From contig CAXXFV010000006.1 of the NCBI GenBank assembly GCA_963674595.2, forward strand, positions 32,001 through 96,000: a stretch of DNA of 64,000 bases, given 5' to 3'. Of this stretch, positions 25,456-58,794 are shown piece after piece. The stretch is from a bacterium (GTDB lineage: Bacteria; Zhuqueibacterota; Zhuqueibacteria; Residuimicrobiales; Krinioviventaceae). The position numbers were made by a program, and so were the translations under genes. Below the pieces are notes generated by a model. It did not search any database. It was not told the origin of the DNA and was given only the letters and a program-made list of their open reading frames with translations. The stretch's first letter is position 1. Each line of letters begins with the position of its first letter.

Positions 25456-25479
25456 AATAAATGCCTTACTCAAATATTA

Positions 25480-25710
25480 TTATACAGAAACAACCTCAAT
25501 AACTTCAGGCAACTGACGTTTCAATTCTTTTTCAATTCCCATTTTCAAGGTCAATTGGGCCATTGGACACGTTCCACAGGCGCCTTGTAGTTTTACTTTA
25601 ACAATTCCCTCTTCAACAGCGACAAGTTCTACATTGCCGCCGTCAGCCATAAGGGCCGGACGAATTGTATCTAATACGCTATCTACAGCATTAAAATCTA
25701 ATTGTGACAT
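25480..25710 (-). CDS. NifU/NfuA-like Fe-S carrier
   Basis: IRPAL.ADGGNVEL, LQGACGTCP..TLK.GIE. Confidence 0.9.
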   Translation of the reverse strand: MSQLDFNAVDSVLDTIRPALMADGGNVELVAVEEGIVKVKLQGACGTCPMAQLTLKMGIEKELKRQLPEVIEVVSV

Positions 25711-25728
25711 AATATTTTCCTGTTATTT

Positions 25729-26595: not shown

Positions 26596-26628
26596 TCGTT
26601 GATATGCGGTTAAATGTTTAAGTCAGGT

Positions 26629-26657
26629 AATATAAACATTGTGCATAATAATTGCAA
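26629..26657 (-). promoter_or_regulatory. Putative sigma70 promoter of the rnfB-nifU pair
   Basis: Minus strand TTGCAA-17 nt-TATATT, ~35 nt upstream of the ORF. Confidence 0.5.
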
Positions 26658-26762
26658 GTTGAAATAAAGGACAGGAGTTGTGTTTTTATATTTTTAAGCA
26701 GACTAGGTGCTAACTATTTTGATGTTATATGTATCACTTCACGGCCAATAACATATTTGCAT

Positions 26763-26795
26763 AAAAAACCTCAAGGGATTTGTCAGCCCTTGAGG
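26763..26795 (-). terminator. Rho-independent terminator ending the permease operon
   Basis: Perfect 9-bp stem CCTCAAGGG/CCCTTGAGG with 9-nt loop, followed by T6 on the minus strand, 28 nt past the ATPase stop. Confidence 0.8.
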
Positions 26796-26822
26796 AAAAA
26801 TATTATATTTTTTAAATTCTGA

Positions 26823-27489
26823 TTATTCTTCTTTTTCTAACCAGCCATCCAGCAAATGAATAATTCTGTCTCCGTAGGCGGCTTTTTGTTCGTCATGCGT
26901 AACCTGTATGATTGTAGTCCCTTCACTATTTAATTGTTTCAGCATATCCATTATCTCAAATCCCTGTTTCGAATTCAAATTTCCGGTCGGTTCATCAGCC
27001 AGGATCAGTTTGGGATTTATAATAAGCGCGCGCTATGGCCACCAACTGTTGCTGTCCGCCGGAAAGCTGGCTTGGAAAGAGGTCTTTTTTAGCGACCATA
27101 TTAAATCTATCCAGTATATCGGCAATCAGGCTTTTCCGTTCTGATGTTTTGACTTTTTTGTAAAGTAAGGGTGTTTCAAGGTTTTCATACACGGTCAAAT
27201 CATCGATAAGATGGTATTGTTGAAACACAAATCCGATATATTGCTGATGTAACAGGGTCCTTTTTTTCTCGTTGAGTGAATGGACCGGTTCCTCAAAAAA
27301 GTAATATTCCCCTCCCGAGGCATCATCCAGCATGCCGATAATATGCAGCAACGTCGATTTTCCGGCACCTGAAGGTCCCATAATTGTAACAAACTCGCCC
27401 TGGTTAATTGTCAGGTCTATATTTCGTAAAACCCATGTTTTTACAAATTTATTGGAATAGTATTTTTCTATTTCTTTCAACTTTATCAT
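26823..27489 (-). pseudogene. MacB/LolD-type ABC ATP-binding protein, frameshifted at a (GC)4 tract at 27026-27033
   Basis: [21 protein letters not shown] in ORF 26995-27489; [24 protein letters not shown] continues in another frame to a stop at 26823. Confidence 0.85.
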
Positions 27490-27503
27490 TTTGTTCTCCT
27501 GTG

Positions 27504-29885: not shown

Positions 29886-29900
29886 TTTTTGCCTCTGGTT

Positions 29901-32321: not shown

Positions 32322-32333
32322 TGCGAATTCACC

Positions 32334-34670
32334 TTATTCATATTTTAAAGTTTGTACCGGATTTGTCATAGCTGCTTTTAATGTATGAAAGCTGATTGTA
32401 AACAAAGCCAACAGTATTGTTATCAGTCCTGTTATGAGAAATGGAGTTACTGAAAGATTTATGCGATAGGCATAGTTTTTCAGCCAGTTGTTGATAAATA
32501 ACCAGGAAACAGGCCAGGCTATTAAATTTGCTAAAAGAACCCATTTTGAAATGTTTTTGTAAAAGAGCAAAAGAATAGCCGGTACCGAGGCCCCGGCTAC
32601 TTTACGGATTCCGATTTCTTTTGTCCGTCGCTCGACCATAAAGATAGACAATCCAAAAAGTCCCATACTGGAAATAATAATAGTTAACAGAGCAAATGAT
32701 GTGAATAATTTTCCCAGTTGTTGCTCAGATTGGTAAAGTGACTCAAAATCCTGGTCCATAAAATTATAAGAAAACGGGAATCCCGGGGCAATGCTGTTTA
32801 TTGTTTTTTCGATATGTTGTAAAGATGCCTCTATTTCTGATGGTTTTATTTTTATGGCCAGATAATTATACCACCTGGGATCAAGATCAAAGGCACAGGG
32901 TTTAATTTCAGAGTGAAGAGAATTGAAATTAAAATCTTTAATAACACCGATAATGCGGCCGTTACCTGATATGGATTTCCCTACGGGATTTTCGAGTCCC
33001 ATTTGTTTAACCGCCGTTTCGTTGATAACAAAACCCAGGCTGTCTGATGCAATATCCTCTGAAAAAAATCTGCCGGCGGCCATATTTATTTGAAACGTTT
33101 CAGTAAAATCAGGAGATACCGAAATAATATTCATCAAAATTGATTTTTGCTGATCGTTTCCTTCCCATTGATTAACATCGATACTTGCAAAGGCTTTTAT
33201 ACCAATTTTGTCTGATAGAACAGCGACATGAGTTATAGATGGTTTTTTAAGCAATTCATGTTTGATGGTATTGACTTTTGATTTACTCTCTCTATTTAGA
33301 GGAACAAATACAATGTGACTTTTCTCAAATCCCGGATTTTGTGCACGAAGATAATTCAGTTGACGTGAGATAAAAAGAGTCGCAACGATTAATATAGCTG
33401 TCATTGTAAATTGGAAAATAACAAGAACAGACCGGAACAAAGATGAACCGGAGGCCTGTTTACCTTTAAAAATAGCCACTGGTTTCAGTGAAGACAAATA
33501 CAAAGCCGGATAACTACCGGAAATAATGCCGGTAAATATAGATAGTATTAAAAGAGCGCCTATGAGCGGTAAGTTGTGCAGGATATTAAAGGTCAGATAT
33601 TTACCTGAATACTGGTTAAAGACCGGTACTAACAACTTGACAATTAACAGGCTTGAAAACAGTGATAAAATTGTGATAAAAACAGCTTCCAGATAAAACT
33701 GGATTGTCAGGTCCAGTTTGTTTGCACCGACAACTTTACGCAATCCGATTTCTTTTGTTCGAACAGATGTTCTCGCCGTGGTCAGGTTCATAAAGTTAAT
33801 ACAGGCAATGAGCAAAACAAATACGGCAATAACGGTAAAAATATAAATATAGGTAATGATACCGCCGCCGTTGATATTGCGGATATGTATGTCTTTTAAG
33901 GCCTGAAGGTATAATTTCGGTTTCCACTTGAAAGTAGCGGACTGTGCGGCAAAGTCTGCAATTTTGGTGTTCAAGTCGCTCACATTCGTATTCTCATTGA
34001 GCAATACAAATGTATTATAGCCCCATTCGTGCCAATTATTTTCATCACCGCTTCCCATCAATTCTTTATAATGTTTAAAGGGAAAAAACAGTTCACATTG
34101 AAAATAACTGTTTTTCGGAATGTCTTTAATAACGGCTGTTATTTTAAAATCGGTTTTATTGTTTACCGTAATTATTTTATCCAGAGGTTCCGTATCGCCA
34201 AACAGTTTGTGCGCCATTGTCTCCGTAATAACAACAGAGTAGGGAAGTGTCAGAGCAGATTGCTTGTCTCCTTTAACAAAATCATAGGAAAAAATATCAA
34301 AAAAATCGGGATTGGCAAAACTACTCTTTGTTTCTAAAACTGATTCGTTTCGAGTGATCAGTAACCTGTCCTGCAATTTATAGGTTGTTGATTTTGTGAT
34401 TTCAGGAAATTTATTTTTTATCGCCTTTGCCAGGGCCGTCGGTGTGGAGGCATAATTGCGCATTTCTTTATATGTGGCATCTTTTAAATTGACTCTGTAA
34501 ATGGAACCTGTGTTTTTATGAAACGAGTCATAGCTTAATTCATGCTGAATCCACACCATGATAAAAACGCAAACCGACAATCCGGCTGTTAATCCGATTA
34601 TATTGATAAACGTAAATAATTTCTGTTTACGCATAATTCGTAATATTATTTTTAAATGATTGAAGAGCAT
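32334..34670 (-). CDS. Duplicated MacB/FtsX-type ABC permease (9th)
   Basis: IACINFMNL..R.KEIGLRK, RTKEIGIRK, NPVQTLKYE. Confidence 0.92.
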   Translation of the reverse strand: MLFNHLKIILRIMRKQKLFTFINIIGLTAGLSVCVFIMVWIQHELSYDSFHKNTGSIYRVNLKDATYKEMRNYASTPTALAKAIKNKFPEITKSTTYKLQDRLLITRNESVLETKSSFANPDFFDIFSYDFVKGDKQSALTLPYSVVITETMAHKLFGDTEPLDKIITVNNKTDFKITAVIKDIPKNSYFQCELFFPFKHYKELMGSGDENNWHEWGYNTFVLLNENTNVSDLNTKIADFAAQSATFKWKPKLYLQALKDIHIRNINGGGIITYIYIFTVIAVFVLLIACINFMNLTTARTSVRTKEIGLRKVVGANKLDLTIQFYLEAVFITILSLFSSLLIVKLLVPVFNQYSGKYLTFNILHNLPLIGALLILSIFTGIISGSYPALYLSSLKPVAIFKGKQASGSSLFRSVLVIFQFTMTAILIVATLFISRQLNYLRAQNPGFEKSHIVFVPLNRESKSKVNTIKHELLKKPSITHVAVLSDKIGIKAFASIDVNQWEGNDQQKSILMNIISVSPDFTETFQINMAAGRFFSEDIASDSLGFVINETAVKQMGLENPVGKSISGNGRIIGVIKDFNFNSLHSEIKPCAFDLDPRWYNYLAIKIKPSEIEASLQHIEKTINSIAPGFPFSYNFMDQDFESLYQSEQQLGKLFTSFALLTIIISSMGLFGLSIFMVERRTKEIGIRKVAGASVPAILLLFYKNISKWVLLANLIAWPVSWLFINNWLKNYAYRINLSVTPFLITGLITILLALFTISFHTLKAAMTNPVQTLKYE

Positions 34671-34691
34671 TTCGTTCTCCTGATATTTCTT

Positions 34692-36194
34692 TTAATCCTG
34701 AAAATGTGTTTGAAAAAATGAAAAAAACTCCGGGATCATTTGATACCACTCGTCATGATGATGTCCGCCATCAAAAAGGACATATTTATGATCCATGCCT
34801 TTTGTTTGTAATAACGAATGAAATTCTTCCGCCACCTTGTTTAATCCCAGTTCATCACTGTTGCCGCAGGTTATAAAAATATTTTGTTTAATTTTTTGCT
34901 GAGAATTGGAAACGATATAAAAGGGATTTTTTTCTACATATTCTTTTTGGGGTCTGTGCAGAACGCCGGAAACAGATACGACAGCTTTAAACCTGTCCGG
35001 ATACCTCAGTCCGAAACTCATGGCGGCAGTGCCACCGTTTGATAAGCCGATGATCCCGCAGGTGTTTTCGTTGACCCGATATTTACTTTCAACACAGGGT
35101 ATCAGTTCCTGGATAAAACTTTTTTCCAGATTTTTACCCGTTAAAGGCTCTACAAGAAACCTGGAACCTCGTGATCCCTGAGTGCCAATCAGGATAAAGG
35201 GTTCAACCTTTTTGGATAGGATCAAGTCATTATATATTTGATCCAGTCGACCGTTAACCAATGTTCCGTATATTTCGCTTCCGCCGCCAAAAGCGTAAAT
35301 AACCGGATATTTTTTGTTTTTATTCGTATAATAATCGGGCGGCAAGTACACACCGAAAACCCGTTCCTCGGATAAAATATCTGATTTATAATAATCCCTT
35401 ATCAAATAAAACGGCTGTTTTATTAATTCGCCATTTTGCAAAAAAAGTTCGTCAATAAAAATCCTTTTTGAAGATTGATAATCCATTTCAATTTGAAATA
35501 AATATTGACTTGTTCCGGAATTTTCTTTTTTGCCCAATGGTTGAATTTCAATGTGCCGGGGAAATTCACCGAATAATTGATAATCGTTTTTTAACTTCAA
35601 CTGTTCAAAAGAGAGGTCTGTGCTACCGGATAATTGACTGATTATATTTTCAACAAGAGGTTTCCAGGCATCTGTTTTAGGAGTATAGGGCAGGTACTGG
35701 TTGTTTTTAATAAAATCCTGTAATTTTATAATTGATGGAATTCTATTATAAAACCCGCCGCGTTTGGAATTATTTTCAATTATAAAAGAGAGCTTTACCT
35801 CTTTATTAGTATTTATAGAAGCCGGAATGTAGAATAGCGAATTCTTCCAGTTTTCAATCCGGAATAAAGGCGAAAGTGAACCGCAGGTGCCAACCAGGGA
35901 ATCGTTCCAATTGGCTTTAACAGCTTCACCAACTTTACCAATCATCAGTATTAAATCCGTGTTTACAAAATCGTCGGGAATCGTTTCGCGTATTGAAACA
36001 TTAAATTTTCCGATTTGCTCAAAGAGTAATTTGTCAGTAGGCTTTTCAATTTTAATCTGTGATTGCTGCGAGGGTGATGACTCTGCTTGAATGGTGTAAT
36101 TGCCGGTTAATTCTAACATATCCTGACTGGAAGAGATTTGACAGGTACAGAACACAATCACTAAAAATAGAAAGATATAACGTTTTTTATTCAT
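34692..36194 (-). CDS. Exported alpha/beta-hydrolase (Fes/EstA-like esterase) with an N-terminal accessory domain
   Basis: Signal peptide; VYLPPDY, KYPVIY, ELIP.VES.Y, GLSNGG nucleophile elbow, G.SD, GGH...W. Confidence 0.8.
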   Translation of the reverse strand: MNKKRYIFLFLVIVFCTCQISSSQDMLELTGNYTIQAESSPSQQSQIKIEKPTDKLLFEQIGKFNVSIRETIPDDFVNTDLILMIGKVGEAVKANWNDSLVGTCGSLSPLFRIENWKNSLFYIPASINTNKEVKLSFIIENNSKRGGFYNRIPSIIKLQDFIKNNQYLPYTPKTDAWKPLVENIISQLSGSTDLSFEQLKLKNDYQLFGEFPRHIEIQPLGKKENSGTSQYLFQIEMDYQSSKRIFIDELFLQNGELIKQPFYLIRDYYKSDILSEERVFGVYLPPDYYTNKNKKYPVIYAFGGGSEIYGTLVNGRLDQIYNDLILSKKVEPFILIGTQGSRGSRFLVEPLTGKNLEKSFIQELIPCVESKYRVNENTCGIIGLSNGGTAAMSFGLRYPDRFKAVVSVSGVLHRPQKEYVEKNPFYIVSNSQQKIKQNIFITCGNSDELGLNKVAEEFHSLLQTKGMDHKYVLFDGGHHHDEWYQMIPEFFSFFQTHFQD

Positions 36195-36243
36195 TATTTA
36201 ATACCTCGTTTTTACGTGTATTATAATTTTGTACAGGATCGTT

Positions 36244-36423
36244 TTACTCATACCTCAAACTCTCCACCGGATTGGCGGTAGCTGCACGGACCGTTTGAAA
36301 ACTGATCGTTAATAAAGCGATAACCAGTGCAGATACCCCTGCCAGCAAAAACGGCCAGATGGTTAAATCAATTCGATAGGCAAAGTTTTGCAGCCATTTG
36401 TTCATAGCGTACCAGGCAAGGGG
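36244..36423. repeat. Permease 3'-end direct repeat, copy A
   Basis: 180 nt with 4 mismatches to 41097-41276 by manual alignment. Confidence 0.95.
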
Positions 36424-38706
36424 CCAGGCGATGAGGTTGGCGATTAAAATCAATACTAATAATTCTTTGATAAGGAAATTGATGATATTTGGTATTGATG
36501 CGCCAAATATTTTTCGTATCCCAATCTCTTTTGTCCTTTTTTCAGTAGTAAATGCAATTAAACCGTATAGACCCAAACAAGCGATGATAATAGCCAGAGA
36601 GGATGAGAGATTCAAGAGCAAAATTGTTTTTAATTCGGATTTGTATATTTTTTCAAAATGTTCATCCAAAAAGAAAAATTCAAAGGGACGGTCTGGAAAA
36701 TGCTCCGGCCATTTTTTTGCCATATAGTGTAAACATTCTGAAACCTGAATTGGATTAATTTTGACTGAGAGATATTTTCCCCAGCCGATATAAAAAACAA
36801 GCGGTTGTATTTTTTTATAAACAGGCGCAAAATTAAAATCTTTAACCACACCGATGACTCTGCCAGGTTTGTTTTGTGACCATGCTGAATGAAATATTTT
36901 GTTGATCGGCTCTTCCCATCCAATTGTTTTGACGGCTGTTTCATTCACTATATAAGCATGTGTTGCATCTGTTCCATAGTCTTGAGAAAAATCTCTTCCT
37001 TTAATAATTTCAAAATTATATGTTTTTATAAAATCGTAATCTACTCTAATTGTTGGAAAACTGGTTTTATTATCATGTTGTTCCAGCATTACTGGTGCGT
37101 CACTGTACTTGTTGCCTTCCCACCAAAATCGCATTGAACGTTTACCTGTCATACCACTTGGAAAGTCTGAAGAAGCAGAAACGTTTAAAATCCCGTTATG
37201 TTGTTCCAGTTGTTTTTTATATGACAGATGTTTTTGTTTACCCCAGTTTCCCCGAAGCGGAATTACCAGAATTTGGTTTTTAAACACACCAAGTTGTTTT
37301 TTATGCATATATTTCAGTTGATTTGCAAAAATTAACGTTGTACATATTAATGCAATACAAATTACAAATTGCGAAACGACTAGAACCTTTTTAAAAGTGA
37401 ATTTGGTATGTCTATTTGAAAAGGCCTTTTGGAAAACGGAAACAGGATGAAAACCGGACAGGAACACTGCGGGGTACCATCCAGCAATTAAACCAAGAAA
37501 GAGTGTGATAATCAGAAAACCCAATATAAGGGGCCAGTTTTGAAAATAATGCAATGTCAGGTTCCGGTCCACAAGTTGACTGAAAAAGGGTAATATTAAT
37601 TCCGTTAAAAGCAAAGCGGCAATAAAAGCAAAAATCGCTGTAAATAGTGATTCGCCAAGAAATTGTATAATTAAAGATTTACGTTGTGCTCCAATGACTT
37701 TACGAACCCCTATTTCATGCGCTCGATTTTCAAAACGGGATGTTGATAAATTCATATAATTGATACAGGCAATAACAAGAATTAAAAGGGCAATAACAGA
37801 TAGCATTATTATTTGCCTGTAATTTTCATTGGTTTCAAGGCCGTTCCTCCCCATTATATAAAGATGTGTTTTGGTGAGTGGCTGGAAAGCCGGAAGCCTT
37901 GTAATTTCTTTGGGATAATCCGGGCTCGGATGTTTATTAGCAAATTCAATGAGTTTATTTTCCAATGTTGAGGGTGAATGCTTTTTATCCATTAACACAA
38001 AAGATTTAAAAGTATTTGATCTGCGCCATCTGTCCCAGGGTGAAGGAGAAATCCCAATCACCTCTTCAGCGCAGGACATGGACGCCAGAAAGTCAAATTT
38101 TATGTGTGAATTATCCGGAATATTTTTTAATACGCCTGTAATTGTAAAATCGAATTTTTTAAATTGATTGTCATATACAATAATTTTACCAACAGGGTTT
38201 TCGTCTCCGAAATATTTTTCAGCCATTTGTTCAGTCAATACGATGGAATAGGGATTGACAAGCGCTGTCCTTGGGTTACCTTGTATTAAGGGGTATGTAA
38301 ATATTTCAAATACTGTTGCATCTGCAAAAAGTATATGTTCTTCATAAAACCGATTTTCGCCGTAGGACAGTAATATTTTTTGTTCGTTTCTCAAAGGGGC
38401 ATATATTGCGCTTGTAAACCGACAATAATTTAGAATTTCCGGAATTTCATCACAAATTGCCGGTGTCATGGGTGCCGATGTTTCTGCAAAGAAAATTGAA
38501 TCTGGTCCTCGACGTATTTCTGTATGGACTTTATAAATGCAATCTGCATTTTCGTGAAACCGGTCTGAACTTGCCTCATGATACGCGTAAATAAAAATCA
38601 TAAATGCAACTGTTAATCCGACCGACATACCAAAAACATTTATTAAAGTAAATGCTTTATGTTTTAACAAGTTTCGAAGTGCAATTTTCACATAATTTTT
38701 TAACAT
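36244..38706 (-). CDS. Duplicated MacB/FtsX-type ABC permease (8th)
   Basis: MLKNYVKIALRNL, IACINYMNL, EIGVRK, NPVESLRYE. Confidence 0.92.
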   Translation of the reverse strand: MLKNYVKIALRNLLKHKAFTLINVFGMSVGLTVAFMIFIYAYHEASSDRFHENADCIYKVHTEIRRGPDSIFFAETSAPMTPAICDEIPEILNYCRFTSAIYAPLRNEQKILLSYGENRFYEEHILFADATVFEIFTYPLIQGNPRTALVNPYSIVLTEQMAEKYFGDENPVGKIIVYDNQFKKFDFTITGVLKNIPDNSHIKFDFLASMSCAEEVIGISPSPWDRWRRSNTFKSFVLMDKKHSPSTLENKLIEFANKHPSPDYPKEITRLPAFQPLTKTHLYIMGRNGLETNENYRQIIMLSVIALLILVIACINYMNLSTSRFENRAHEIGVRKVIGAQRKSLIIQFLGESLFTAIFAFIAALLLTELILPFFSQLVDRNLTLHYFQNWPLILGFLIITLFLGLIAGWYPAVFLSGFHPVSVFQKAFSNRHTKFTFKKVLVVSQFVICIALICTTLIFANQLKYMHKKQLGVFKNQILVIPLRGNWGKQKHLSYKKQLEQHNGILNVSASSDFPSGMTGKRSMRFWWEGNKYSDAPVMLEQHDNKTSFPTIRVDYDFIKTYNFEIIKGRDFSQDYGTDATHAYIVNETAVKTIGWEEPINKIFHSAWSQNKPGRVIGVVKDFNFAPVYKKIQPLVFYIGWGKYLSVKINPIQVSECLHYMAKKWPEHFPDRPFEFFFLDEHFEKIYKSELKTILLLNLSSSLAIIIACLGLYGLIAFTTEKRTKEIGIRKIFGASIPNIINFLIKELLVLILIANLIAWPLAWYAMNKWLQNFAYRIDLTIWPFLLAGVSALVIALLTISFQTVRAATANPVESLRYE

Positions 38707-38750
38707 AATTCATCCCACTTAAACAAAATTATACTTCCAGATTCTATAGT

Positions 38751-38939
38751 CTACTCATACCTTAAACTCTCCACCGGATTGGCCGTGGCTGCCCGGACCG
38801 TTTGAAAACTGATCGTCAGTAAGGCAATTACCAGCGCTGCTAATCCTGCCAGCAAAAACGGCCAGATCGTTAAATCAATTCTGTAAGCGAAACTTTGCAG
38901 CCATTTGTTCATAGCGTACCAGGCAAGGGGAGCGGCGAT
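38751..38939. repeat. Permease 3'-end direct repeat, copy C
   Basis: About 23 mismatches over ~189 nt versus the 41097 copy (manual count). Confidence 0.9.
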
Positions 38940-41078
38940 TCCAAGTGCTACGAATACACTAATGGTTATTTTTTTTGTAAATAGAACTAAAATATGTAAA
39001 ACAGAAGCTCCGTTGACACGCCGGATACCGATTTCTTTGGTTCGCTGTTCTGTAGAAATTGCGGTTATACCAATAAGTCCAAGACAGGCAAGGAAAATAG
39101 ACAGAACAGTAAATACATAAAAAAGATGTTCAAGACGAACTTCAAAACGATAGAGATTATCAATATAATTATCAAGAAATTGCCCATCCAAAGGCCATGC
39201 GGGTATAATTGATTTCCAGGTTTTTTCAATATCTTTGATTGTGCTGAAATCTGCGTGTCCATTCAACTTTACGATTATTGATAGGAACCTATTCTTTTCC
39301 ATCAATTCTATATATGTCGGGAGCTGTTTTTCGTGTAAGGAAAAATAATTAAAATCCTTTATGACGCCGACGACCTCTTTACCACCGTGAAATGTTTTTC
39401 CAACAGGATTTTTCCAGTTTAGTGTTTTAACGGTTGATTCTGTTAGAATGATCGCATTACTGTCGCTATAGCCTGGGAAGAAAAAACGTCCTTCAATGAG
39501 TTCAAAGTTCATAGTCTGTAAAAAATTGTCTCCAACTTCCAGTTCCTTAAAACTCATTTGTTCACCGGGTTCTTGTTTCCTTATTACGAGGTTACATCGT
39601 CCTCCTGCGTTTACAGGTGTTTGGCCGTAACTTATGGCCGAAATATTAGGATGTTGAAGCAATTGGTCTTTTAATGCATTATAATCACCCTCATCAAAAT
39701 TGATCCTATAATGTATGTTGATCATATATATATTATCTTTACGGAATCCCAGGTTTTTATTGTGTATAAAGTGAATTTGTGTTCGCATCAAAGCCAAAGT
39801 CGTTAATAGTATTATCGCGATTGTAAATTGAACCGTAATGAGTATTGATCGCATGATATGATTTTGTTTTGGCGGCGCTGATTTTCCAAGAATTGTCAAA
39901 GGATCTGTTCCGGCTGCAAGCCAGGCGGGGTAGAGGCCCGACAACAGTGTTGTTATCACAAGAATTATCAAAGCAAAAATATAAAAGAAAAAATTATTCC
40001 ATAGTCGTGTTTGATAATCAATACCGATAATATTTTGTAAAACCGGATTAAGAATATGCATGAGGAGAATCGCTAATAACAAACTTGTTAATGAAATAAT
40101 AAATGATTCTGTTAAAAATTGTACGATAAGGCTGCTTTTATTGGCATTGAAAATTTTTCGTATTCCTATTTGTACACGTTTTTGTACTTGTTGCGCTATA
40201 GTTATATTGATGATGTTTATACATGCAATTAAAAGTATGAGAATAGCGATTGCTGTAAAAAGAAAAATATATATCTGCGGCAAAACCTTTGCATACTCGT
40301 CTTTAACTTGCGATTGTAAATGTATGTCACTAATCTGCTGCAATTCCAGTTTCTTACAAGCATCGTTTTTTATGGTTTTTATGAATTCATTCAGGTTTAT
40401 ATTGAGTTGTGCTTTTGGAACCGTGGTCGGCTTTTTAATATAAATAATTGGTCCATAATAAGTCCAGCTATCAAGATTTTGGGACCATCTGGACCAGCTT
40501 AAAATTGCATCAAATTGCATGTGACAATTTGTTGGAATGTCTTGGATGACAGCCGTAACTGTGTAGTTTTGAGAATTATCAATTTTAACAATGTTGCCAA
40601 CAGGATTCTGTTCTCCAAACAGTCTTTTAGAAAGGCTTCTTGTAAGCACGAGACTGTTTGGAGCTTCAAGTGCACTCTCTGGATTACCCTGTATGAATTC
40701 GAACGAAAAGACGTTAAAAAAGTTTGCATCCGCTCGCCAGTTTTTAATATTCTGAAGAGTTTTATCCTTATAGGAAAATATTTCACCACCATAAATTTCC
40801 ATTCTGGTTAGAATTGTTGATTCGGGCAAGTATGTATTAATCGCATTGTATAAAAGAAATGAGGTTCGTATTTGGTCATTTTGTATTAAACGATAGATGT
40901 TATCATAATCTTTAAAAAATCTATCAAAATTTTTTTCGTGTTGAATATATGCAAAAATCGTAAAAAAACATGCTATTCCAACAGCTAAACCAATGATGCT
41001 TAAAAGTGAGTATAGTTTTTGATTTTTAATCGACCGAATTGCGTATTTTATGATGTTGAAAGTCATGTTTTCTCCCAT
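38751..41078 (-). CDS. Duplicated MacB/FtsX-type ABC permease (7th)
   Basis: IACINIIN, QIGIRK, RTKEIGIRR, NPVESLRYE; start may be ATG 41066. Confidence 0.9.
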   Translation of the reverse strand: MGENMTFNIIKYAIRSIKNQKLYSLLSIIGLAVGIACFFTIFAYIQHEKNFDRFFKDYDNIYRLIQNDQIRTSFLLYNAINTYLPESTILTRMEIYGGEIFSYKDKTLQNIKNWRADANFFNVFSFEFIQGNPESALEAPNSLVLTRSLSKRLFGEQNPVGNIVKIDNSQNYTVTAVIQDIPTNCHMQFDAILSWSRWSQNLDSWTYYGPIIYIKKPTTVPKAQLNINLNEFIKTIKNDACKKLELQQISDIHLQSQVKDEYAKVLPQIYIFLFTAIAILILLIACINIINITIAQQVQKRVQIGIRKIFNANKSSLIVQFLTESFIISLTSLLLAILLMHILNPVLQNIIGIDYQTRLWNNFFFYIFALIILVITTLLSGLYPAWLAAGTDPLTILGKSAPPKQNHIMRSILITVQFTIAIILLTTLALMRTQIHFIHNKNLGFRKDNIYMINIHYRINFDEGDYNALKDQLLQHPNISAISYGQTPVNAGGRCNLVIRKQEPGEQMSFKELEVGDNFLQTMNFELIEGRFFFPGYSDSNAIILTESTVKTLNWKNPVGKTFHGGKEVVGVIKDFNYFSLHEKQLPTYIELMEKNRFLSIIVKLNGHADFSTIKDIEKTWKSIIPAWPLDGQFLDNYIDNLYRFEVRLEHLFYVFTVLSIFLACLGLIGITAISTEQRTKEIGIRRVNGASVLHILVLFTKKITISVFVALGIAAPLAWYAMNKWLQSFAYRIDLTIWPFLLAGLAALVIALLTISFQTVRAATANPVESLRYE

Positions 41079-41096
41079 AGAACGATATTTTTAGTA

Positions 41097-41285
41097 TTAC
41101 TCATACCTCAAACTCTCCACCGGATTGGCTGTAGCTGCCCGGATTGTTTGAAAACTGATCGTTAATAAAGCGATAACCAGTGCAGATACCCCTGCCAGCA
41201 AAAACGGCCAGATGGTTAAATCAATTCGATAGGCAAAGTTTTGCAGCCATTTGTTCATAGCGTACCAGGCAAGGGGAGCGGCGAT
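41097..41285. repeat. Permease 3'-end direct repeat, copy B
   Basis: Near-identical to 36244-36423; shares a further ~9 nt with copy C. Confidence 0.95.
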
Positions 41286-43454
41286 CATACCGGCGGCAAG
41301 GACAAGTTTAATAAACGGTATGGTAAACGTCGTAAAAAGCTGTGGGAGGGAAGCGCCGACGATTTTCCTTATACCGATTTCTTTTTTACGCTGTTCAACC
41401 GTCAGTCTGGTCAAGCCAAACAGTCCTAACCCGGCCAGCAAAATTGTTAAAACAGAGGCAAAGGAAACAAGTGCCGATGTATTTTGTTCTGCCCGATAGG
41501 TACGTTCAATACTCTCATCCAAAAATCGATATTCAAAAGGATCATTGGGAGCAAGTTCGCCATAGGTTTTTTTTATAAAATCTATTGTCGCGGGTATTTG
41601 GTGTCCGTTAATTTTTATAAAAATATAATTCAGCCAATAGGAATCGATTTTCAGCACAACCGGGTTAATATTATAATGAAGCGGCTGGGCATGAAAGTCT
41701 TTAACCACGCCAACGATATATCCCGGCGAGTCCCAGAAAGAAAACCGTTTGCCGATGGGATTTTCCATTCCCATGGCTTTAACAGCCGTTTCGTTGACTA
41801 TATAAGCGGCGGAATCATCACCGGCAAAATTTTTCGAAAAAGGGCGTCCTTTAACAATGTTCATATCAAAAGTTTCAAAATAGTCATAATCCACCAGACC
41901 GGCGTTCATGCGTATATGTTGTCCCGGCTGTTTACCTTCCCAATCATAATCTCCGGGTGAAGAGCCGATATTACTCGGCAATTGAAAGGAGGCTGTTACA
42001 TTTGCAATATTTGTATTTTGTTTTAATTTGTCTTTAAATGTTGAATAGTTGTCTAAAAATTCTTTTTTCATTCTCAGGTAAATAACCTGGTCCTTTGTAA
42101 AACCCAAATCTTTGTTTTGAATAAAGGAAAGCTGTTTGGATATAATAATTGTGCCTGTAATTAGAAAAATCGAAATCATGAATTGTAAAATGATCAGACT
42201 TGCACGAAAAACAGTTTTTATCTGTTTGTTTAAAGATGTGCTCTTTAACATTAAAAAGGGCTGATAATTGGACAATACCAGTGAGGGATAGGCTCCGGCC
42301 AAAAAAGCTGTTAAAATTGTTATTGCAACACTGCCTGCCAGGATAGTATGGTTCAGGACGGATGTAAATTGAAAGGACTTGCCAGATATTTGGTTGAATG
42401 CCGGCAGAACAAAATCAATTAATAAAAGAGATAAAAGTAATGCAAATAAGGTAATAATCAGGGTTTCTAAAAAAAACTGACCGCAGAGATATCTTTTGGA
42501 ACTACCGAATATTTTCCGCATACCGATTTCATTTAGTCGACGCGAAAACTGGGCGGTGGTTAAAATGATATAGTTTATGCCGGCTATTAAAAGAATAAAA
42601 ACAGCCAGTGCCGAAAATATCCATACATATTTTATGCTGCCCCGGTTATTCATATCATAACTCAGGTTGGAGTGTAGATGGATTTTACCAAAGGGCTGCA
42701 AATAGACATAATTCTTTTTTTCAGGAATATATTTTTGCAAAAATGAGCGAATTTTTGTATTGACGGCTGCTAACGGCGCATCCGGTTGTAACTGCACGAA
42801 CGAGTAATAGGTATGGGCTCGCCAAAAGTCTATATCAACGCGTTCCCGTAAATATTCAAACGGGACCAATATATCAAATTGTAAACTGGAATTTTCAGGG
42901 ACGTTTTTAAATACACCGGTAATTTGCATAGAGTGTTTTTCTGCAAAGAGTATGGTTTTTCCAATGAGATCATCATCACCGAAATATTTTTTAGCCATGT
43001 TTTCTGACAGCATCATTGTAAAAGGTTCGACAAGCTGGGGCGAACCATTGTCTTTGACAATCGGAAAAGAAAACATGTCCAGAAAATCGGGGTCAACAAA
43101 GGCCACATTTTTTTCTTTATAAATATTATCCTCTTTTTTAATAATCCACTCACCAAAGTTATTACATCTTGTGGCTTTTATGATTTCAGGAAATTCGTTT
43201 TTCAATGCCGGTGCAAGGGGTCCCGGGGTAACGGCCTGATGAATTATCTGGTCGCTTGTTTCGTTTTGAATAACCACCCGGTAAAGGTTATCAATATTCT
43301 GATGAAAACGGTCAAAAGTCAGTTCATCATGCACCCATAAAAATACAAGGATAGCACTGGAAAGACCCAAAGTCAGTCCGATAATATTGATAAAAAAGGT
43401 GGTTTTGTTTTTTGCTGCTTGTCTGAAAAATGTTTTTATAATATTTTTCAACAT
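41097..43454 (-). CDS. Duplicated MacB/FtsX-type ABC permease (6th)
   Basis: ELTFDRFH, EIGMRK, RKKEIGIRKIVGA, NPVESLRYE. Confidence 0.92.
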   Translation of the reverse strand: MLKNIIKTFFRQAAKNKTTFFINIIGLTLGLSSAILVFLWVHDELTFDRFHQNIDNLYRVVIQNETSDQIIHQAVTPGPLAPALKNEFPEIIKATRCNNFGEWIIKKEDNIYKEKNVAFVDPDFLDMFSFPIVKDNGSPQLVEPFTMMLSENMAKKYFGDDDLIGKTILFAEKHSMQITGVFKNVPENSSLQFDILVPFEYLRERVDIDFWRAHTYYSFVQLQPDAPLAAVNTKIRSFLQKYIPEKKNYVYLQPFGKIHLHSNLSYDMNNRGSIKYVWIFSALAVFILLIAGINYIILTTAQFSRRLNEIGMRKIFGSSKRYLCGQFFLETLIITLFALLLSLLLIDFVLPAFNQISGKSFQFTSVLNHTILAGSVAITILTAFLAGAYPSLVLSNYQPFLMLKSTSLNKQIKTVFRASLIILQFMISIFLITGTIIISKQLSFIQNKDLGFTKDQVIYLRMKKEFLDNYSTFKDKLKQNTNIANVTASFQLPSNIGSSPGDYDWEGKQPGQHIRMNAGLVDYDYFETFDMNIVKGRPFSKNFAGDDSAAYIVNETAVKAMGMENPIGKRFSFWDSPGYIVGVVKDFHAQPLHYNINPVVLKIDSYWLNYIFIKINGHQIPATIDFIKKTYGELAPNDPFEYRFLDESIERTYRAEQNTSALVSFASVLTILLAGLGLFGLTRLTVEQRKKEIGIRKIVGASLPQLFTTFTIPFIKLVLAAGMIAAPLAWYAMNKWLQNFAYRIDLTIWPFLLAGVSALVIALLTISFQTIRAATANPVESLRYE

Positions 43455-43600
43455 GTTGGGGATTCCTTTTGTGTTTCTAATTTAAACTCAACTATAAAAT
43501 GGGTTCAAAGTTGGAAAGCCATCCTATCTGAGGCTATTTCGCCAGTCTATTAGCGATTATCAACGTTAGTTTTAAAATTATCCAATATTACATTTAGTGA

Positions 43601-45313
43601 TCATTTATTTTCGTTGTTGAATAGATAAGCATAGGCATTTTTAAATAGCATCAGTTTCAACATTCGTTTTGCCAGTGTGTTTCCCGGGAAAACTGTTAAA
43701 GCTTTTTTATAGTATTTTTCTGCCTGGGTATAATTTCCTGCGATTTCATTACGCTGTGCAAGCGCATACCAGCTTTCTGTCCAGTCAGGGCATTCTTTGG
43801 TATATAAAGTCAGAAAGTTTGCATAATCTTCAATACTCTTTTTGTTTGGCAGCAGCCAAAAAAGAAAATCATTTATCAACATTCCTTTATTAATTCCTGT
43901 TGCTTTGTATTGTTTTATAAAATTGTAATATACTTTTTCAAGCCCTTCATAGCCATTGTTTGTATATGCTTCTGACAGCTCTGTTTTGAATTGTTCTTTC
44001 AGGTTTTTGACGTTATCAAAATTGAAAATAAACTCAAGAACAGGGTCTTCATTGTTGCGAAAATTTTTTGATGATAGAGGGATATAAAAATCCGGTCTTG
44101 TGCAATCTGCCATCTCCCATTCAGTGGTGTCCTGATGGTAAATTTGCGATGTACGTACAGGCAATTTACTGTTCGGAAGGGTAAACATTCTTTGTGCCCC
44201 GTAGTGATTTGGCCTGCCGCCTGTATTCTCACCAACAAATGTTGCATTTGTATAAATATCAAATTGTGTTGCAAAATGTTGTGATGCAGAGCCGGTTACT
44301 CGTCCGATTATGACAAATAGTTTATCAGGTTTATCCAGGTTTGGACGAGCTATTATACCTTTAAGAAGAGGCATTTCAAAATGATCACCGCCTCCATTGT
44401 TCCTAACATCGAGGACAAGTTTTTCTGCTCCCTTTTCATCAAATTTTTCAAGCACCTCTTTATAAAATCTGTCAAAATCGCCTTCAGATTTTGGCTGCAT
44501 CTCTTTTAAATACACAAACATTGTTTTGTGCTCTGGAATGTATTGATACCAGTATGCATCTCCTGGTTTAGACAAATATAGGGGCAGCGGTTGATTCGAC
44601 ACATCATTCAACTCGAGAAACCCTTTTTTATTTTGACCGTTCCTGTAAGTGATAATTAATTTTAACACCTCCATAAATGGCATAGGTTCAATTGTGTATT
44701 CGAATTGTTCTGATAATTCATTTTGTAAAGTAAGAACAAGTTTTTTGTCCGTTATCCCAACATTACAATAATCTAATGCACCAACCAGAGAAAAATATAA
44801 ATCGCATAATGCCAATCGTCCGTTATAATTATCACCATTAATTAAATTCATTAATTTATCACGAGTATCATCGGCCGTCAGGTTTCCAAATTTTAATACC
44901 TTGCATCCCAATATTTTTTTATGCTTTGCACTTATGCCTTTTACGAATATTCCATCTGAAAATTGATACATAAAAACAGGATACATATCATAATAGCTTA
45001 GAGCTGTAGAATCTTCTGTTTGCCATAGGGCAATGCCGGTATGCATGTCTTTAATTTTTGCCATTAATTCGTGAATACCAAACACCACTTTTTGATCGGA
45101 TAAATCAGGTATACGTTTTTTTAATTTTTCTGCAGCATCGAGGAATTCGTTTTTATTTATATTTGCGTAAACATTCGGGTGCTGTGTTTCCAAACGGCCA
45201 ATAAGATAATCAATATCCTGGACCCACTTTTCTGTATTCTTGTTTATTTGTGCAAAAATTGAATGAGTCATTATTACAATTGTAAGAATAATAAATTTTA
45301 TCTGATTCATCAA
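43601..45313 (-). CDS. Exported S41-like (tail-specific) peptidase with a C-terminal TPR
   Basis: Signal peptide; W..DIDYL...L...HPN, LVLDVRNNGGG, IGRVTGSAS, VGENTGG, PD; C-terminal A..YYKKAL..FPGN..A. Confidence 0.72.
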   Translation of the reverse strand: MMNQIKFIILTIVIMTHSIFAQINKNTEKWVQDIDYLIGRLETQHPNVYANINKNEFLDAAEKLKKRIPDLSDQKVVFGIHELMAKIKDMHTGIALWQTEDSTALSYYDMYPVFMYQFSDGIFVKGISAKHKKILGCKVLKFGNLTADDTRDKLMNLINGDNYNGRLALCDLYFSLVGALDYCNVGITDKKLVLTLQNELSEQFEYTIEPMPFMEVLKLIITYRNGQNKKGFLELNDVSNQPLPLYLSKPGDAYWYQYIPEHKTMFVYLKEMQPKSEGDFDRFYKEVLEKFDEKGAEKLVLDVRNNGGGDHFEMPLLKGIIARPNLDKPDKLFVIIGRVTGSASQHFATQFDIYTNATFVGENTGGRPNHYGAQRMFTLPNSKLPVRTSQIYHQDTTEWEMADCTRPDFYIPLSSKNFRNNEDPVLEFIFNFDNVKNLKEQFKTELSEAYTNNGYEGLEKVYYNFIKQYKATGINKGMLINDFLFWLLPNKKSIEDYANFLTLYTKECPDWTESWYALAQRNEIAGNYTQAEKYYKKALTVFPGNTLAKRMLKLMLFKNAYAYLFNNENK

Positions 45314-45399
45314 GTTTCCTTGTTCTACGTTTATTTTTCTATTGTTGGTTTTAAATTCAGTTTGTTAAATACCAATATTAATTATGTCTCTTAAGATTA

Positions 45400-45552
45400 C
45401 TACTCATACCTTAAACTTTCCACCGGATTGGCCGTAGCTGCCCTTATCGTTTGAAAACTGATTGTTAATAAGGCAATTAATAACGCTGAAAATCCTGCCA
45501 GTAGAAAGGGCCAGATGGTTAAATCGATTCGATAGGCAAAGTGTTGCAGCCA
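45400..45552. repeat. Permease 3'-end direct repeat, copy D (more diverged)
   Basis: Encodes WLQHFAYRIDLTIWPFLLAG..ALLIALLTISFQTIRAATANPVESLRYE with many codons shared with copies A-C. Confidence 0.8.
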
Positions 45553-47796
45553 ATTTTGAACAAAATACCATGCGATGGGAGCAGCAAAAATTGCTGCAAG
45601 ACTCAATAAAAAGATGAATTCTTTGGAAATCATATAGAATATTTGCAAAACAGAAGCGCCTAAAACTTTTCTTACGCCGATTTCTTTGGTGCGTTGTTCC
45701 GTACTGTAGGATATCAATCCCAAAAGGCCTAAACAGGCGATAAATATTGCCAGCGTGGTAAAGGTATTTACTACTTTACGGATTGCCTGTTCTCCGCCAT
45801 ATTGATAAGCATAAATTTGATCCAAAAAACGGTATTCTAATGAGGATGACGGTGCAAATTGTTTCCATTTTTCGTTCAATAGTTCAAGTGCTTCATTTGT
45901 TTTGTCAGGTGCAACGCGTATGGTCATCCAGTTTAGGCTTTTGGGTTTAAGAAAAATTGTGAATGCATCGATTTTGTGATGGAGCGATTCTGTATGAAAG
46001 TCTTTAACAACACCGATAATTTTCCCTGGCTTTTCCATAAATGCCGGTACCCAAAATGATTTGCCGACTGCTGTTTCCCAGCCGAGTTTCTTTTTTAATG
46101 TTTCGTTTATTATATAAGCATCCTTAACATCGGTTTGCATAAGCGGTGAAAAATCCCGTCCTTCGACAAGTTTAAGATTAAAGAACTCTAAAAAATTATA
46201 ATCGACCGCTGTTAATGAGGTTATCCACGATTGATCAGGTATTTGTCCTTCGAACTGAAATGTTTGACCTTCAAAACCTGGAAAATTATTTGGACCAAAG
46301 GCCGAAACATTTTTAATCAGTGTATTGGATAAAAGTTCATGTTTAATAGCAGTCAGGTTTTTTTGTACTGTTTCCGGCATTTTAACAGTAACAACTTGTG
46401 TTTTATCAAATCCAAGGTCTTTATTTTGAATCCAATTCAGTTGTTTTTCAATAAACAGGGTACAAATGATTAATATAATTGAAATGCAAAATTGTGCAGT
46501 AACCAATATCTTTTGCAGGCTTTTGCCTTTCTTTTTATCCTTTGATGAGTTAAACACACTTAGGGGTTGTGGAAGCGACATACTCAGGGCCGGATAAATT
46601 CCTGCCAAGATACCCGTTAAACCCGATAGAATAGCCATGACCATATAAATCAATAATTTATTATTATGGTAAAAACTAAATTCATTATTAAAAGTATTAT
46701 TTGTTTGACTGATTATTGCAAAAATCAATGCAGCTAATATCATGGATATGAAAGACGTTACAACAGATTCACTTATAAATTGTATTGTTAGTTGTTTTCG
46801 ATGAGCGCCGATCATTTTTCGAATACCAACTTCTTTTGAACGTCTCAAAGAACGTGCTGTTGTCAGGTTTATATAATTTATACAGGCAATAACGAGAATT
46901 AATATGGCGATAAAAGAAAGAACATAGACAAAAACAATATCAAACTTTTTCCAGTTTATTTGATCGAACTCTAGTTTCCCGGAATAGAGGTGCATGTCTT
47001 TTAAGGATTGCAAATAAACATCGATTTCCATATCCGGATGGTATTTATTGCAAATACCGGCAATTTTTTTATCCACACTTTTGGGATCAATATTCGATTC
47101 AAGCATGACATACGTATAAAATCCGGCGTCAATTTTTTCTTTTTCTGATTTTTGTTTTTCCAATAGCCAGCTTTTGGGAAAAGGGGCCAGCATGTTGATT
47201 TGAAGATGTGAAGTGTTGGGTATTTCTTTTAATACGGCAGAAATGATATAAGAATTATTCTCTGCAATAGTTATGCTTTTTCCGACTGGATTTTCCCGGC
47301 CAAAGATTTTTTCCGATAATTGCTTTGATAAAATGAGGCTGTTTGGGTTTTTAAAAGCATTTTGGGCATTCCCATATAAAAAATCAAAATCGAAAAATTG
47401 AAAAAAGGAGGGATCTGTAAAATAGAATGAATAAACCTGTGAAATATTATCATTATATTTTACAGGGGTTGCCCCGTTTATACCATATAATCGAACAAAA
47501 TCTTTAATTTCCGGGTAATCCTGTTTTAATATTCGACCCATCCATTCAAACGAACCACAGTGCTGCAATGCGCCAATACCTTCAATATTGGCATCGAGAA
47601 TCGTTCGATAAATGTTGTCTCTGTTTTTGTGAAATCGATCAAATGAAAGATGATAGCCCATAATGATATAAATGAAAAGACAACATAAAAATCCTATTGT
47701 TAATCTCAGGATGTTTATCATTGTATAATATTTTTGTCGAACCAAATAACGTATTGTTGTTTTTAGATAATTTTTAATAATTGACATTTCGTTCAA
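45400..47796 (-). CDS. Duplicated MacB/FtsX-type ABC permease (5th)
   Basis: IACINYINL..ARS..RSKEVGIRK, RTKEIGVRKVLGA, NPVESLRYE. Confidence 0.92.
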   Translation of the reverse strand: MNEMSIIKNYLKTTIRYLVRQKYYTMINILRLTIGFLCCLFIYIIMGYHLSFDRFHKNRDNIYRTILDANIEGIGALQHCGSFEWMGRILKQDYPEIKDFVRLYGINGATPVKYNDNISQVYSFYFTDPSFFQFFDFDFLYGNAQNAFKNPNSLILSKQLSEKIFGRENPVGKSITIAENNSYIISAVLKEIPNTSHLQINMLAPFPKSWLLEKQKSEKEKIDAGFYTYVMLESNIDPKSVDKKIAGICNKYHPDMEIDVYLQSLKDMHLYSGKLEFDQINWKKFDIVFVYVLSFIAILILVIACINYINLTTARSLRRSKEVGIRKMIGAHRKQLTIQFISESVVTSFISMILAALIFAIISQTNNTFNNEFSFYHNNKLLIYMVMAILSGLTGILAGIYPALSMSLPQPLSVFNSSKDKKKGKSLQKILVTAQFCISIILIICTLFIEKQLNWIQNKDLGFDKTQVVTVKMPETVQKNLTAIKHELLSNTLIKNVSAFGPNNFPGFEGQTFQFEGQIPDQSWITSLTAVDYNFLEFFNLKLVEGRDFSPLMQTDVKDAYIINETLKKKLGWETAVGKSFWVPAFMEKPGKIIGVVKDFHTESLHHKIDAFTIFLKPKSLNWMTIRVAPDKTNEALELLNEKWKQFAPSSSLEYRFLDQIYAYQYGGEQAIRKVVNTFTTLAIFIACLGLLGLISYSTEQRTKEIGVRKVLGASVLQIFYMISKEFIFLLSLAAIFAAPIAWYFVQNWLQHFAYRIDLTIWPFLLAGFSALLIALLTISFQTIRAATANPVESLRYE

Positions 47797-47823
47797 ACCT
47801 TAATTAAGAAGGAAAAGAATTTT

Positions 47824-58449: not shown

Positions 58450-58794
58450 TTATGCGGCGAGCTGTTTTATTTTTGAAAATTTTTTTAATTTTATCAGATG
58501 ATTATTGAAAAAATAATATTGCGCGTCTGTTATTGTTTTATTTTGATAGATTTTTTCTACGAGATGCAGCAGTTTTTGAGATGTTGATTCGATCTCTTTT
58601 AATATTGAAACTGTATTTTTATCATGATGGTGAAAAATGTATTTTTGCACCATTGTTAAAATTTTTATTGTCAAACATTGTATGGCACAACGATACGCTT
58701 GTGCCGGTTCTGCTGGAAATGAATCTGCTGTTTTCAGCAAAACCACGGAAAAAAGCCGGCATTGCTGCCATATTTTCTGATCGTTCTTTTCCAT
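58450..58794 (-). CDS. Divergent four-helix-bundle-like protein (23S rRNA IVS protein/Avd-like superfamily, tentative)
   Basis: N-terminus QKIWQQCRLFSVVLLKTADSFPAE resembles the L.VWQ.A..L...IY..T..FP.EE family start; 114 aa, helical; 2 nt from the upstream stop. Confidence 0.5.
   Translation of the reverse strand: MEKNDQKIWQQCRLFSVVLLKTADSFPAEPAQAYRCAIQCLTIKILTMVQKYIFHHHDKNTVSILKEIESTSQKLLHLVEKIYQNKTITDAQYYFFNNHLIKLKKFSKIKQLAA

Follow-up and report, generated by a model that had tools for sequence, protein, structure and literature searches.

Shared 3′ ends in a tandem array of divergent MacB-like permease genes point to gene conversion and unit turnover

How can genes that have diverged along nearly all of their length end in almost the same nucleotides? 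The question is raised by a bacterial locus in a stretch of 64,000 nucleotides (nt) (G000:C6:32001-96000; the whole stretch that was analyzed, called the window here), taken from a 6.6-Mb draft genome of 37 contigs with 5% contamination. As an earlier note made from the letters of the sequence (the original prediction) had counted, the window holds 11 full-length paralogous permease genes, which lie in a tandem array and are named here after the coordinate at which each ends (p36244 and so on; Table 1). Their proteins are 23 to 40% identical in pairwise comparisons, and yet the last 189 nt of several genes, here termed the tail, are closely similar. We conclude, with a probability of about 0.82, that the array is an ordinary old tandem family under gene conversion and unequal recombination, that is, under concerted evolution combined with birth and death.

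Nucleotide and synonymous identity in the tails

The tails form a family of direct repeats (D1) with copies at 36241, 38748, 41094, and 45397, spaced 2507, 2346, and 4303 nt apart as first reported, and weaker copies at 47821 and 32331. The p36244 and p41097 tails differ at 4 positions in the last 180 nt and at 7 in the last 189 nt, and the ∼130-nt identity described in the original prediction was confirmed as a perfect run of 131 nt at offsets 49 to 179 from the stop codon (36293 to 36423 in p36244). All four differences within the last 180 nt fall at offsets 33 to 48; the other three lie at offsets 180 to 182, the 5′ edge of the tract. The p38751 tail has 23 mismatches per 189 nt to that of p41097, again in agreement with the earlier count, and 25 to that of p36244, and at its 5′ edge 46 consecutive nt are the same as in p41097. 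The copy in p45400 is more diverged, as first noted (38 to 42 mismatches per 189 nt to the other three). Two weaker echoes had also been proposed. The one at 47824 was recovered over the tail (62 to 69 mismatches per 189 nt), and the one at 50246 proved limited to the last ∼50 nt (86% identity).

The boundaries of the tract are sharp. Identity stops at the stop codon, with 15 to 21 matches in the 60 nt downstream, and at the 5′ edge it ends at a ..PLAWY.. motif, beyond which the next 120 nt match at 59 to 68 positions. Outside the tail, the tail-sharing genes are 46 to 51% identical in nucleotides (51% for p36244 and p41097), so the claim of little likeness upstream holds. All-against-all blastn comparison of the paralogues gave 37 aligned pairs, among which the top four were these tails, with no other tract near them. 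When the tail sequence was sought elsewhere in the genome, it was found in the array only. Within the array it is common to just 3 or 4 of the 11 genes: the p27504 tail is 39 to 49% identical in nucleotides to the others, and 7 of 11 permeases keep quite different tails. The term "constant C-terminal module" used in the original prediction therefore does not describe the array.

Synonymous identity was assessed by counting codon matches at identical degenerate residues in the tail and elsewhere (Fisher test). For p36244 and p41097, codons were identical at 52 of 55 such residues in the tail versus 121 of 252 elsewhere (P = 8 × 10−12). Comparison of p38751 with p36244 or p41097 gave 38 of 53 in the tail versus 92 of 208 and 100 of 214 elsewhere (44 to 47%; P = 3 × 10−4 and 8 × 10−4). 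Codon identity was at background in all 49 other pairs. Conserved motifs outside the tract, for example TKEIGIRK, the best conserved block of the protein, show ordinary synonymous scatter. Protein-level selection thus does not explain the tail identity, as had been argued from the sequence at the outset.

Tail polymorphism and unit turnover in strains and relatives

Exact look-ups placed the window proteins in clusters with orthologues from two assemblies, represented by contigs of 98,328 nt and 78,531 nt; comparisons with both were made on proteins. The strain with the 98,328-nt contig is the closest on record, its p41097 and p38751 each lying 1 residue from those of the window. At the level of protein, the p41097 tail of this strain is the same as that of the window bar one residue, whereas the p36244 tail differs: p36244 has 10 residue differences, 4 of them in the last 62 residues, and its tail reads ..AGSAAL..TIK.. 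in the closest strain versus ..AGVSAL..TVR.. in the window. The V-S-A/S-A-A difference is what a pair of indels a few bases apart gives, and contigs of two public sequencing runs, X2 and X10, show such a pair at 36334/36340. In the simplest reading, the original tail beside the esterase gene would have been of the GSA type; in the window lineage, after its split from the closest strain on record, p41097 sequence would have overwritten offsets 49 to 179 of p36244, which include the GSA/GVS site; and the TVR codons at offsets 33 to 48 would have been left untouched, giving the 4 remaining differences within the last 180 nt. Separately, 5 of the 10 closest-strain differences in p36244 cluster within 43 residues (549 to 591) of the second periplasmic domain, and this cluster matches no single window paralogue.

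The strain with the 78,531-nt contig differs from the window by ∼0.5 to 4% at the protein level. Its p47824 carries six clustered tail changes (N747H, V749A, T752I, Q753D, I754L, and F756I) that equal p45400, the next gene downstream, at 6 of 6 positions, including an H that is unique to p45400 among the 11 paralogues. The p45400 of the same strain carries the same patch sequence. Overall, differences between strains fell in the last 62 residues in 16 of 88 cases in the five tail-related genes versus 1 of 94 in the six others (Fisher P = 4.8 × 10−5). Away from the tails, 11 of 30 inter-strain differences in p52803 lie in the first 24 residues, which may mark a recombination patch or an alternative start region, and the p29901 orthologue of the 78,531-nt strain is recorded as two products of 277 and 550 amino acids (aa), the gene being broken there.

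Conversion of this kind was also found independently. The species-representative set held no genome of the same genus. When a 13.3-kb region was compared with 40 other genomes, only tail-sized matches were obtained (65 to 91% identity), in 13 of the 40. A metagenome scan with a 23-nt tail word returned 2 contigs, both distant (74 to 81% over the tail only) and set aside as too distant for strain comparison. Relatives at the family level contributed 7 genomes, in which 8 stretches together hold 58 full-length genes, the longest row having 13. Among these 58 was one pair with homogenized tails, genes A (27731 to 30100) and B (25375 to 27738) of genome G015, 96% identical over 186 nt. The A/B tract has the same 5′ edge, at ..WPIAW.., and the next 600 nt match at only 337 of 647 aligned positions. 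A second genome of that genus, G008 (86 to 93% nucleotide identity to G015), holds an orthologue of A. At the 17 tail sites where A differs from this orthologue, B equals A at 14 and the orthologue at 1. This pattern is one of concerted evolution after the species split. The codon test, the strain polymorphism, and this independent case all support the proposal of recent gene conversion at the tail.

Whole in-frame units also differ between genomes, with breakpoints at gene ends, among them the tail breakpoints that the original prediction had anticipated. The 78,531-nt contig has orthologues of p27504, p29901 (split), p32334, p41097, p45400, p47824, p50246, p52803, and p55286, together with the S41 peptidase gene and the esterase gene (the latter present in all three strains on record). 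The protein clusters record no p36244 or p38751 orthologue on this contig. The p41097 tail of this strain departs from that of the window at 3 positions, and at all 3 it has p36244-type residues (S and A, found in p36244 of the closest strain, and V, found in that of the window), the pattern to be expected from a crossover between the two tails, which lie 4,853 bp from each other. No protein with an identity to p36244 above 45% and below 100% was found in the whole collection, and matches to p38751 at E ≤ 1e-150 in the collection of 5.8 billion were limited to its own two-member cluster; p36244 has thousands of matches at E of 1e-150 or better.

In a third public run, X5, from a relative ∼3% diverged, contig record 27 runs from 41229 to 45400, continues through 2,430 extra nt, and resumes from 45401 to 49382. 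Within the extra part, a stretch matches the 5′ portion of the tail at 78 of 90 nt (87%) and lies where a gene would be expected to end, indicating a further permease unit exactly at the p45400 stop codon. Contigs of X2 and X10 cross 45400/45401 without an extra unit. Depth in X5 is approximately zero over 39339 to 40672, and X10 has no listed piece over 36307 to 41200; these gaps could be missing genes, and since no contig joins across them, nothing was drawn from either. Listed contig joints had short sides (20 to 35 nt) and high depth, look like paralogues of other organisms, and were not used.

Two further unit indels distinguish G008 from G015. G008 is without a 4,895-bp block that corresponds to G015 genes B and C. 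Its gene follows A through the tail until the last ∼20 nt, from where it agrees with the sequence found after C (GCGTTGAGGTATGA, followed by GAATAA and the spacer downstream). Since gene C has a 60% protein match in another genus (G002), loss in G008 is the likelier direction. Gene X of G015, a 2,575-bp unit with a 54% protein match in G002, is likewise missing in G008, with its junction inside the first ∼40 nt of the genes, in a conserved N-terminal motif. Since one unit indel was joined at the opposite (5′) gene end, the tail has no special status as a site.

Anchors, mechanism, and competing explanations

These observations can be accommodated by a simple mechanism. Homologous recombination between neighbors would keep acting on the old paralogues. 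Non-reciprocal gene conversion would copy short 3′-end tracts between genes, from ∼30 to at least 131 nt in length, with the overwriting of p36244 by p41097 as the latest event and older conversions giving the 78 to 88% similarity with p38751 and p45400. Whole in-frame units would be deleted or added when short conserved termini (the last ∼20 to 40 nt and the first ∼40 nt) recombine unequally or slip. The tract with its synonymous identity, the tail polymorphism among strains, and the unit indels of relatives with junctions at gene ends are direct observations; the enzymology (RecA-type recombination versus replication slippage) and the direction of each event are inferred.

Where events fall would be decided by conserved anchor motifs rather than by a dedicated site. 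In a scan of 36-nt windows among pairs outside the four-gene group (median identity, 48%), the best conserved window was TKEIGIRKVLGA (71%), the C-terminal ATANPVESLRYE block was second (66%), and the N-terminal motif was sixth (61%). The indel junctions sit in the C-terminal ATANPVESLRYE block and the N-terminal motif. The ..AWY..WLQ.. motif and the C-terminal block may serve as the two anchors of the conversion tract, one at either side, and likeness between two tails, once present, would ease further events. The encoded part of the protein may also matter. The last 67 residues of p41097 align to residues 595 to 662 of 664 in the solved MacB structure 5lil, and the tail would comprise the end of transmembrane helix 3, the last transmembrane helix with the "shoulder" loop before it, and the C-terminal coupling helix. 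A review describes TMH3 and TMH4 as joined by a short shoulder loop and a C-terminal "minor coupling helix" as contacting the nucleotide-binding domain; deletion of this helix had a modest effect in Escherichia coli MacB (PMC5985334). The tail is thus a self-contained, probably interchangeable part facing the shared ATPase, and this may make converted genes viable.

Several results weigh against this account or narrow it. In a wider survey of other species (Bacteroidota, Aminicenantes, Ignavibacteria, and further groups; 80 loci with 265 full-length genes), none of the 534 within-locus pairs had a tail tract of at least 80% identity over at least 80 nt, so that tails are homogenized sporadically and not as a general feature of such loci. 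That survey did yield five short tracts, of which two lie at the 5′ end, one in the EIGIRK block, and the remaining two in the first FtsX domain; an extra match was an overlap of open reading frames (ORFs). At the 5′ end, adjacent paralogues in loci L066 (15578 to 20802) and L094 (7572 to 12379), from two other species, are 83 to 88% identical over the first ∼95 nt, tracts that represent conversion at the 5′ end rather than at the tail. Among paralogues without conversion, the inner part of the tract shows no unusual conservation (46 to 57%), and neither this figure nor the survey, with its lack of homogenized tails, accounts for a preference for the tail in this family. For p45400, the codon test against the other three genes was weak (31 of 48 to 50 residues in the tail versus 43 to 51% elsewhere; P = 0.006 to 0.06). 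The shared tail type is near the family consensus, with 79 to 87% protein identity to the tail of a gene from another genus (G002_12801_15146), and part of the four-gene similarity is thus plain conservation. The 4,895-bp junction in G008 has only ∼14 to 20 identical nt, short for a classical RecA crossover, and the direction of the G008/G015 indels is inferred. In the 78,531-nt strain, the deletion and its junction rest on protein look-ups and cluster absence, in which split products shorter than 424 aa are missed. Finally, 28 mismatches and 2 gaps were counted over the 843 nt of the X2 contig that links the esterase gene and the p36244 tail (neighboring contigs have 8 mismatches in 2403 nt and 10 in 3044 nt), and both gaps lie inside the tail; since the mismatch positions are unlisted, this excess is a hint and not a count.

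Of the explanations that dispense with conversion, an assembly artifact, with a repeat collapsed or copied by the assembler, would be suggested by the draft state and contamination of the genome and by short-read contigs that break inside the tails. We placed contigs of four public runs (X1, X2, X5, and X10) on positions 30001 to 50000 of the window. In X1, which contains 0.98 of the sampled words, contigs with 0 mismatches end at 36272, 36394, 41125, and 41256, exactly where 31-mers become common to two true copies, and the tail identity is therefore not an artifact of assembly. Contigs of X2 pass through both tails, as expected if the X2 copies differ, so the method discriminates between the two states. 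The same p41097 tail protein occurs in other assemblies, and the same phenomenon is seen in G015, an assembly of 3 contigs, making the artifact highly improbable. Extension of the identity to synonymous sites could also reflect a nucleic-acid element conserved at the nucleotide level, such as an RNA structure, an internal promoter, or a binding site. The region from 26000 to 61000 gave zero matches to Rfam families, the tail and its downstream sequence folded no better than shuffles (z = +1.18), promoter-like and terminator-like sites were at chance level, the tract is absent from 7 of 11 paralogues, and the strain patches copy the sequence of a neighbor; such an element is scarcely credible. 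Alternatively, whole genes might have been duplicated recently, with the heads then diverging very fast, but this idea has nothing in its favor except the common tail and is already contradicted, since it would require low synonymous divergence in the heads. Head codon identity at conserved residues is instead at background (44 to 51%), and several heads match other genera better than any paralogue of their own genome (46% versus 34% for p29901, 42% versus 34% for p45400, and 59% versus 36% for p55286), leaving this explanation with next to no probability.

Other readings accept recombination and ask what maintains the tails. Selection could keep them alike in addition to the mechanics, if permeases that share an ATPase gain from copying a well-fitting tail. 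This idea adds to gene conversion and unequal recombination and is compatible with them. The alignment of the tail to the end of MacB, where the C-terminal helix contacts the nucleotide-binding domain according to the review PMC5985334, speaks for it, as does the presence of one intact ATPase gene for 11 permeases, the second being frameshifted. A common ATPase interface is a possible object of selection, yet 7 of 11 permeases keep other tails, deletion of the helix had only a modest effect in E. coli MacB (same review), and synonymous identity is not required by protein selection; overall, a contribution of this kind is unlikely. In a strong version of the original prediction, the tail is a maintained constant module, the joint of a recombinase-free, integron-like system that excises, duplicates, and imports units adaptively. 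Tail-end junctions of unit indels in three comparisons (X5 record 27, the 4,895-bp indel between G008 and G015, and the 78,531-nt strain), the interchange of tails between heads that the conversions show, and the one ATPase and one fusion protein common to 11 permeases are all in keeping with it. The restriction of the tail to 3 or 4 of 11 genes, the indel joined at a 5′ end, and the rarity of homogenized tails (none in the 80 surveyed arrays and one pair among the 58 genes of relatives) argue against it, as does the failure to find a hairpin or any known RNA or DNA element. There is also no sign of the import that had been proposed: G+C content ranges from 0.34 to 0.42 in the array genes (0.39 in the genome) with p36244 and p38751 inside that range and not outliers, and the all-against-all blastn comparison showed no duplicated heads. 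An adaptive, integron-like joint is accordingly very doubtful. It is only a little less speculative to suppose that the termini, above all the tail, are kept alike for evolvability, allowing recombinase-free shuffling of substrate-specific units on a chassis of one ATPase and one fusion protein, and we regard this as quite unlikely.

Locus architecture and relation to known systems

All 11 array genes scored above the Pfam cutoffs for MacB_PCD and FtsX, with two FtsX stretches per gene. Their products are fused double units (two MacB_PCD plus FtsX each) of type VII ATP-binding cassette (ABC) permease; from the order of the domains, each unit would have a four-helix topology, giving eight helices once fused. 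The likeness to MacB extends to a solved structure: residues 6 to 265 of the last 267 residues used as the query matched residues 392 to 662 of 664 in chain 5lil_A (E = 6.8e-12). Genome-wide there are 12 full-length paralogues, 11 in the window and the 12th at C16:721887-724352. The array is interrupted by two unrelated genes, one for an esterase and one for an S41 peptidase with TPR repeats. Intergenic gaps between array genes are 12 to 146 nt long and terminator-like sites in the array are no commoner than in shuffles, so the genes may be transcribed as a single long operon or as a few. The same strand carries, immediately upstream, the intact ATPase gene and the gene for an HlyD-family membrane-fusion protein, separated by an ORF that matches no Pfam family and is conserved in three strains. 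The divergent response regulator and histidine kinase genes are, by their position, candidate regulators of the locus.

Table 1. Features of the permease locus (coordinates of the window)
Feature	Coordinates	Strand	Remarks
p36244 tail, last 189 nt	36244-36432	-	96.3% identical to p41097 tail; putative recipient of latest conversion
p38751 tail	38751-38939	-	87-88% to p36244 and p41097 tails; putative older conversion product
p41097 tail	41097-41285	-	perfect run 41146-41276; probable donor
p45400 tail	45400-45588	-	78-81% to p36244, p38751, and p41097 tails
p47824 tail	47824-48012	-	weak likeness here; apparently partly converted by p45400 in one strain
Permease array, 11 tandem paralogues	27504-57697	-	ORF list; 775-820 aa each
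Array members p27504, p29901, p32334, p36244, p38751, p41097, p45400, p47824, p50246, p52803, p55286		-	
p29901	29901-32321	-	
p36244	36244-38706	-	
p38751	38751-41066	-	
p52803	52803-55166	-	
Second ABC ATPase gene, frameshifted	26823-27489	-	downstream end of array; Pfam ABC_tran, reading frames
Esterase-family gene, 500 aa	34692-36194	-	between p36244 and p32334; Pfam Esterase, 8.6e-26
Peptidase S41/TPR gene	43601-45313	-	between p45400 and p41097; Pfam Peptidase_S41, 4e-13
Sole intact ABC ATPase gene of locus, 229 aa	57737-58426	-	upstream of permeases; Pfam ABC_tran, 4.2e-35
114-aa ORF	58450-58794	-	between HlyD-family and ATPase genes
HlyD-family membrane-fusion protein gene	58797-60047	-	head of locus; Pfam HlyD_3, HlyD_D23
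Sigma-54-dependent response regulator and histidine kinase genes	60287-63002	+	divergent; Pfam Sigma54_activat, Response_reg, HTH_8, HATPase_c

At the other end of the array, a 164-aa ORF of the frameshifted ATPase gene covers positions 1 to 126 of 137 of the ABC_tran profile, breaks after ..VAIARA.., and continues in a different frame for the rest of the domain; either a pseudogene or a sequencing error could account for this. About 3 kb past it, among housekeeping genes, lies the sole tyrosine recombinase gene of the window (22995 to 23939, + strand; 314 aa, Xer-like, Phage_integrase and SAM_1), with no link to the array seen. Farther on, the N- and C-terminal domains of a formyltransferase are split over overlapping ORFs (18348 to 18893 and 18880 to 19272, + strand; 18348 to 19272 together), which points to a frameshift in an fmt-like gene or to faulty assembly.

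That paralogues within a bacterial genome undergo gene conversion and concerted evolution is established (see PMC6053082, PMC5485169, and PMC8256042), and expansion and contraction of arrays by unequal recombination is likewise already known. The present tails share with segmental gene conversion the greater likeness of paralogues than of orthologues within the tract, synonymous identity, sharp tract edges, and recurrent events. They differ in that the tract spans no more than the last 63 codons of very divergent genes (23 to 40% protein identity) and that strains are caught at different stages. As in the birth and death of other tandem arrays, whole units come and go between direct repeats, with reading frames intact and junctions placed in the best conserved stretches; here, in contrast, the junctions use very short conserved termini (∼14 to 40 nt) and not long repeats. 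MacB, LolCDE, FtsEX, and YbbP, all type VII ABC systems, offer the closest match in protein architecture, with MacB_PCD and FtsX domains, matches to solved MacB chains, and a separate ATPase and HlyD-type partner adjoining. The fusion of two permease units into one chain has a counterpart in YbbP, as the review PMC5985334 describes it. Unlike MacB-type systems, the locus described here has eleven alternative fused permeases behind one ATPase.

The comparison with mobile or shuffling systems is less close. Integron cassette arrays also consist of a same-strand row of units whose number varies between strains, but the units here are paralogues and not unrelated cassettes. The Rfam search and the folding test found no attC-like sites at the array, and the Pfam scan found no integrase or intI there. 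With junctions also at 5′ ends and no dedicated recombinase at the array, the integron analogy of the original prediction is not supported. In Rhs, CdiA, and MafB C-terminal exchange, recombination takes place at a conserved block beside a variable part, as it does here. The geometry of the permease array is the inverse, which is how the original prediction had put it, and there are no orphan fragments; Pfam detected no toxin or immunity domains in the units, which have permease domains only, apart from the interposed esterase and S41 peptidase. Searches of an open-access library aimed at these permease arrays returned no paper on them.

The locus is a clear case of a known process, unusually well documented, and not a dedicated integron-like system. 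There are practical consequences, because 131-nt repeats break short-read assemblies inside genes and can create or hide chimeric gene models, and trees built from whole permease sequences are misled by the tails. If the termini were kept alike for evolvability, any head could take any tail, because the tail would encode the part that docks on the single ATPase, and units would turn over at rates that matter within populations. With two or more permease genes at 50 of the 80 surveyed loci, the combination of one ATPase and one membrane-fusion protein with many alternative fused permeases of the MacB type makes up a widespread type of locus, and the array examined here shows in nature, and at good resolution, how segmental gene conversion and unit turnover act on a bacterial tandem family, with strains representing the states before and after single events.

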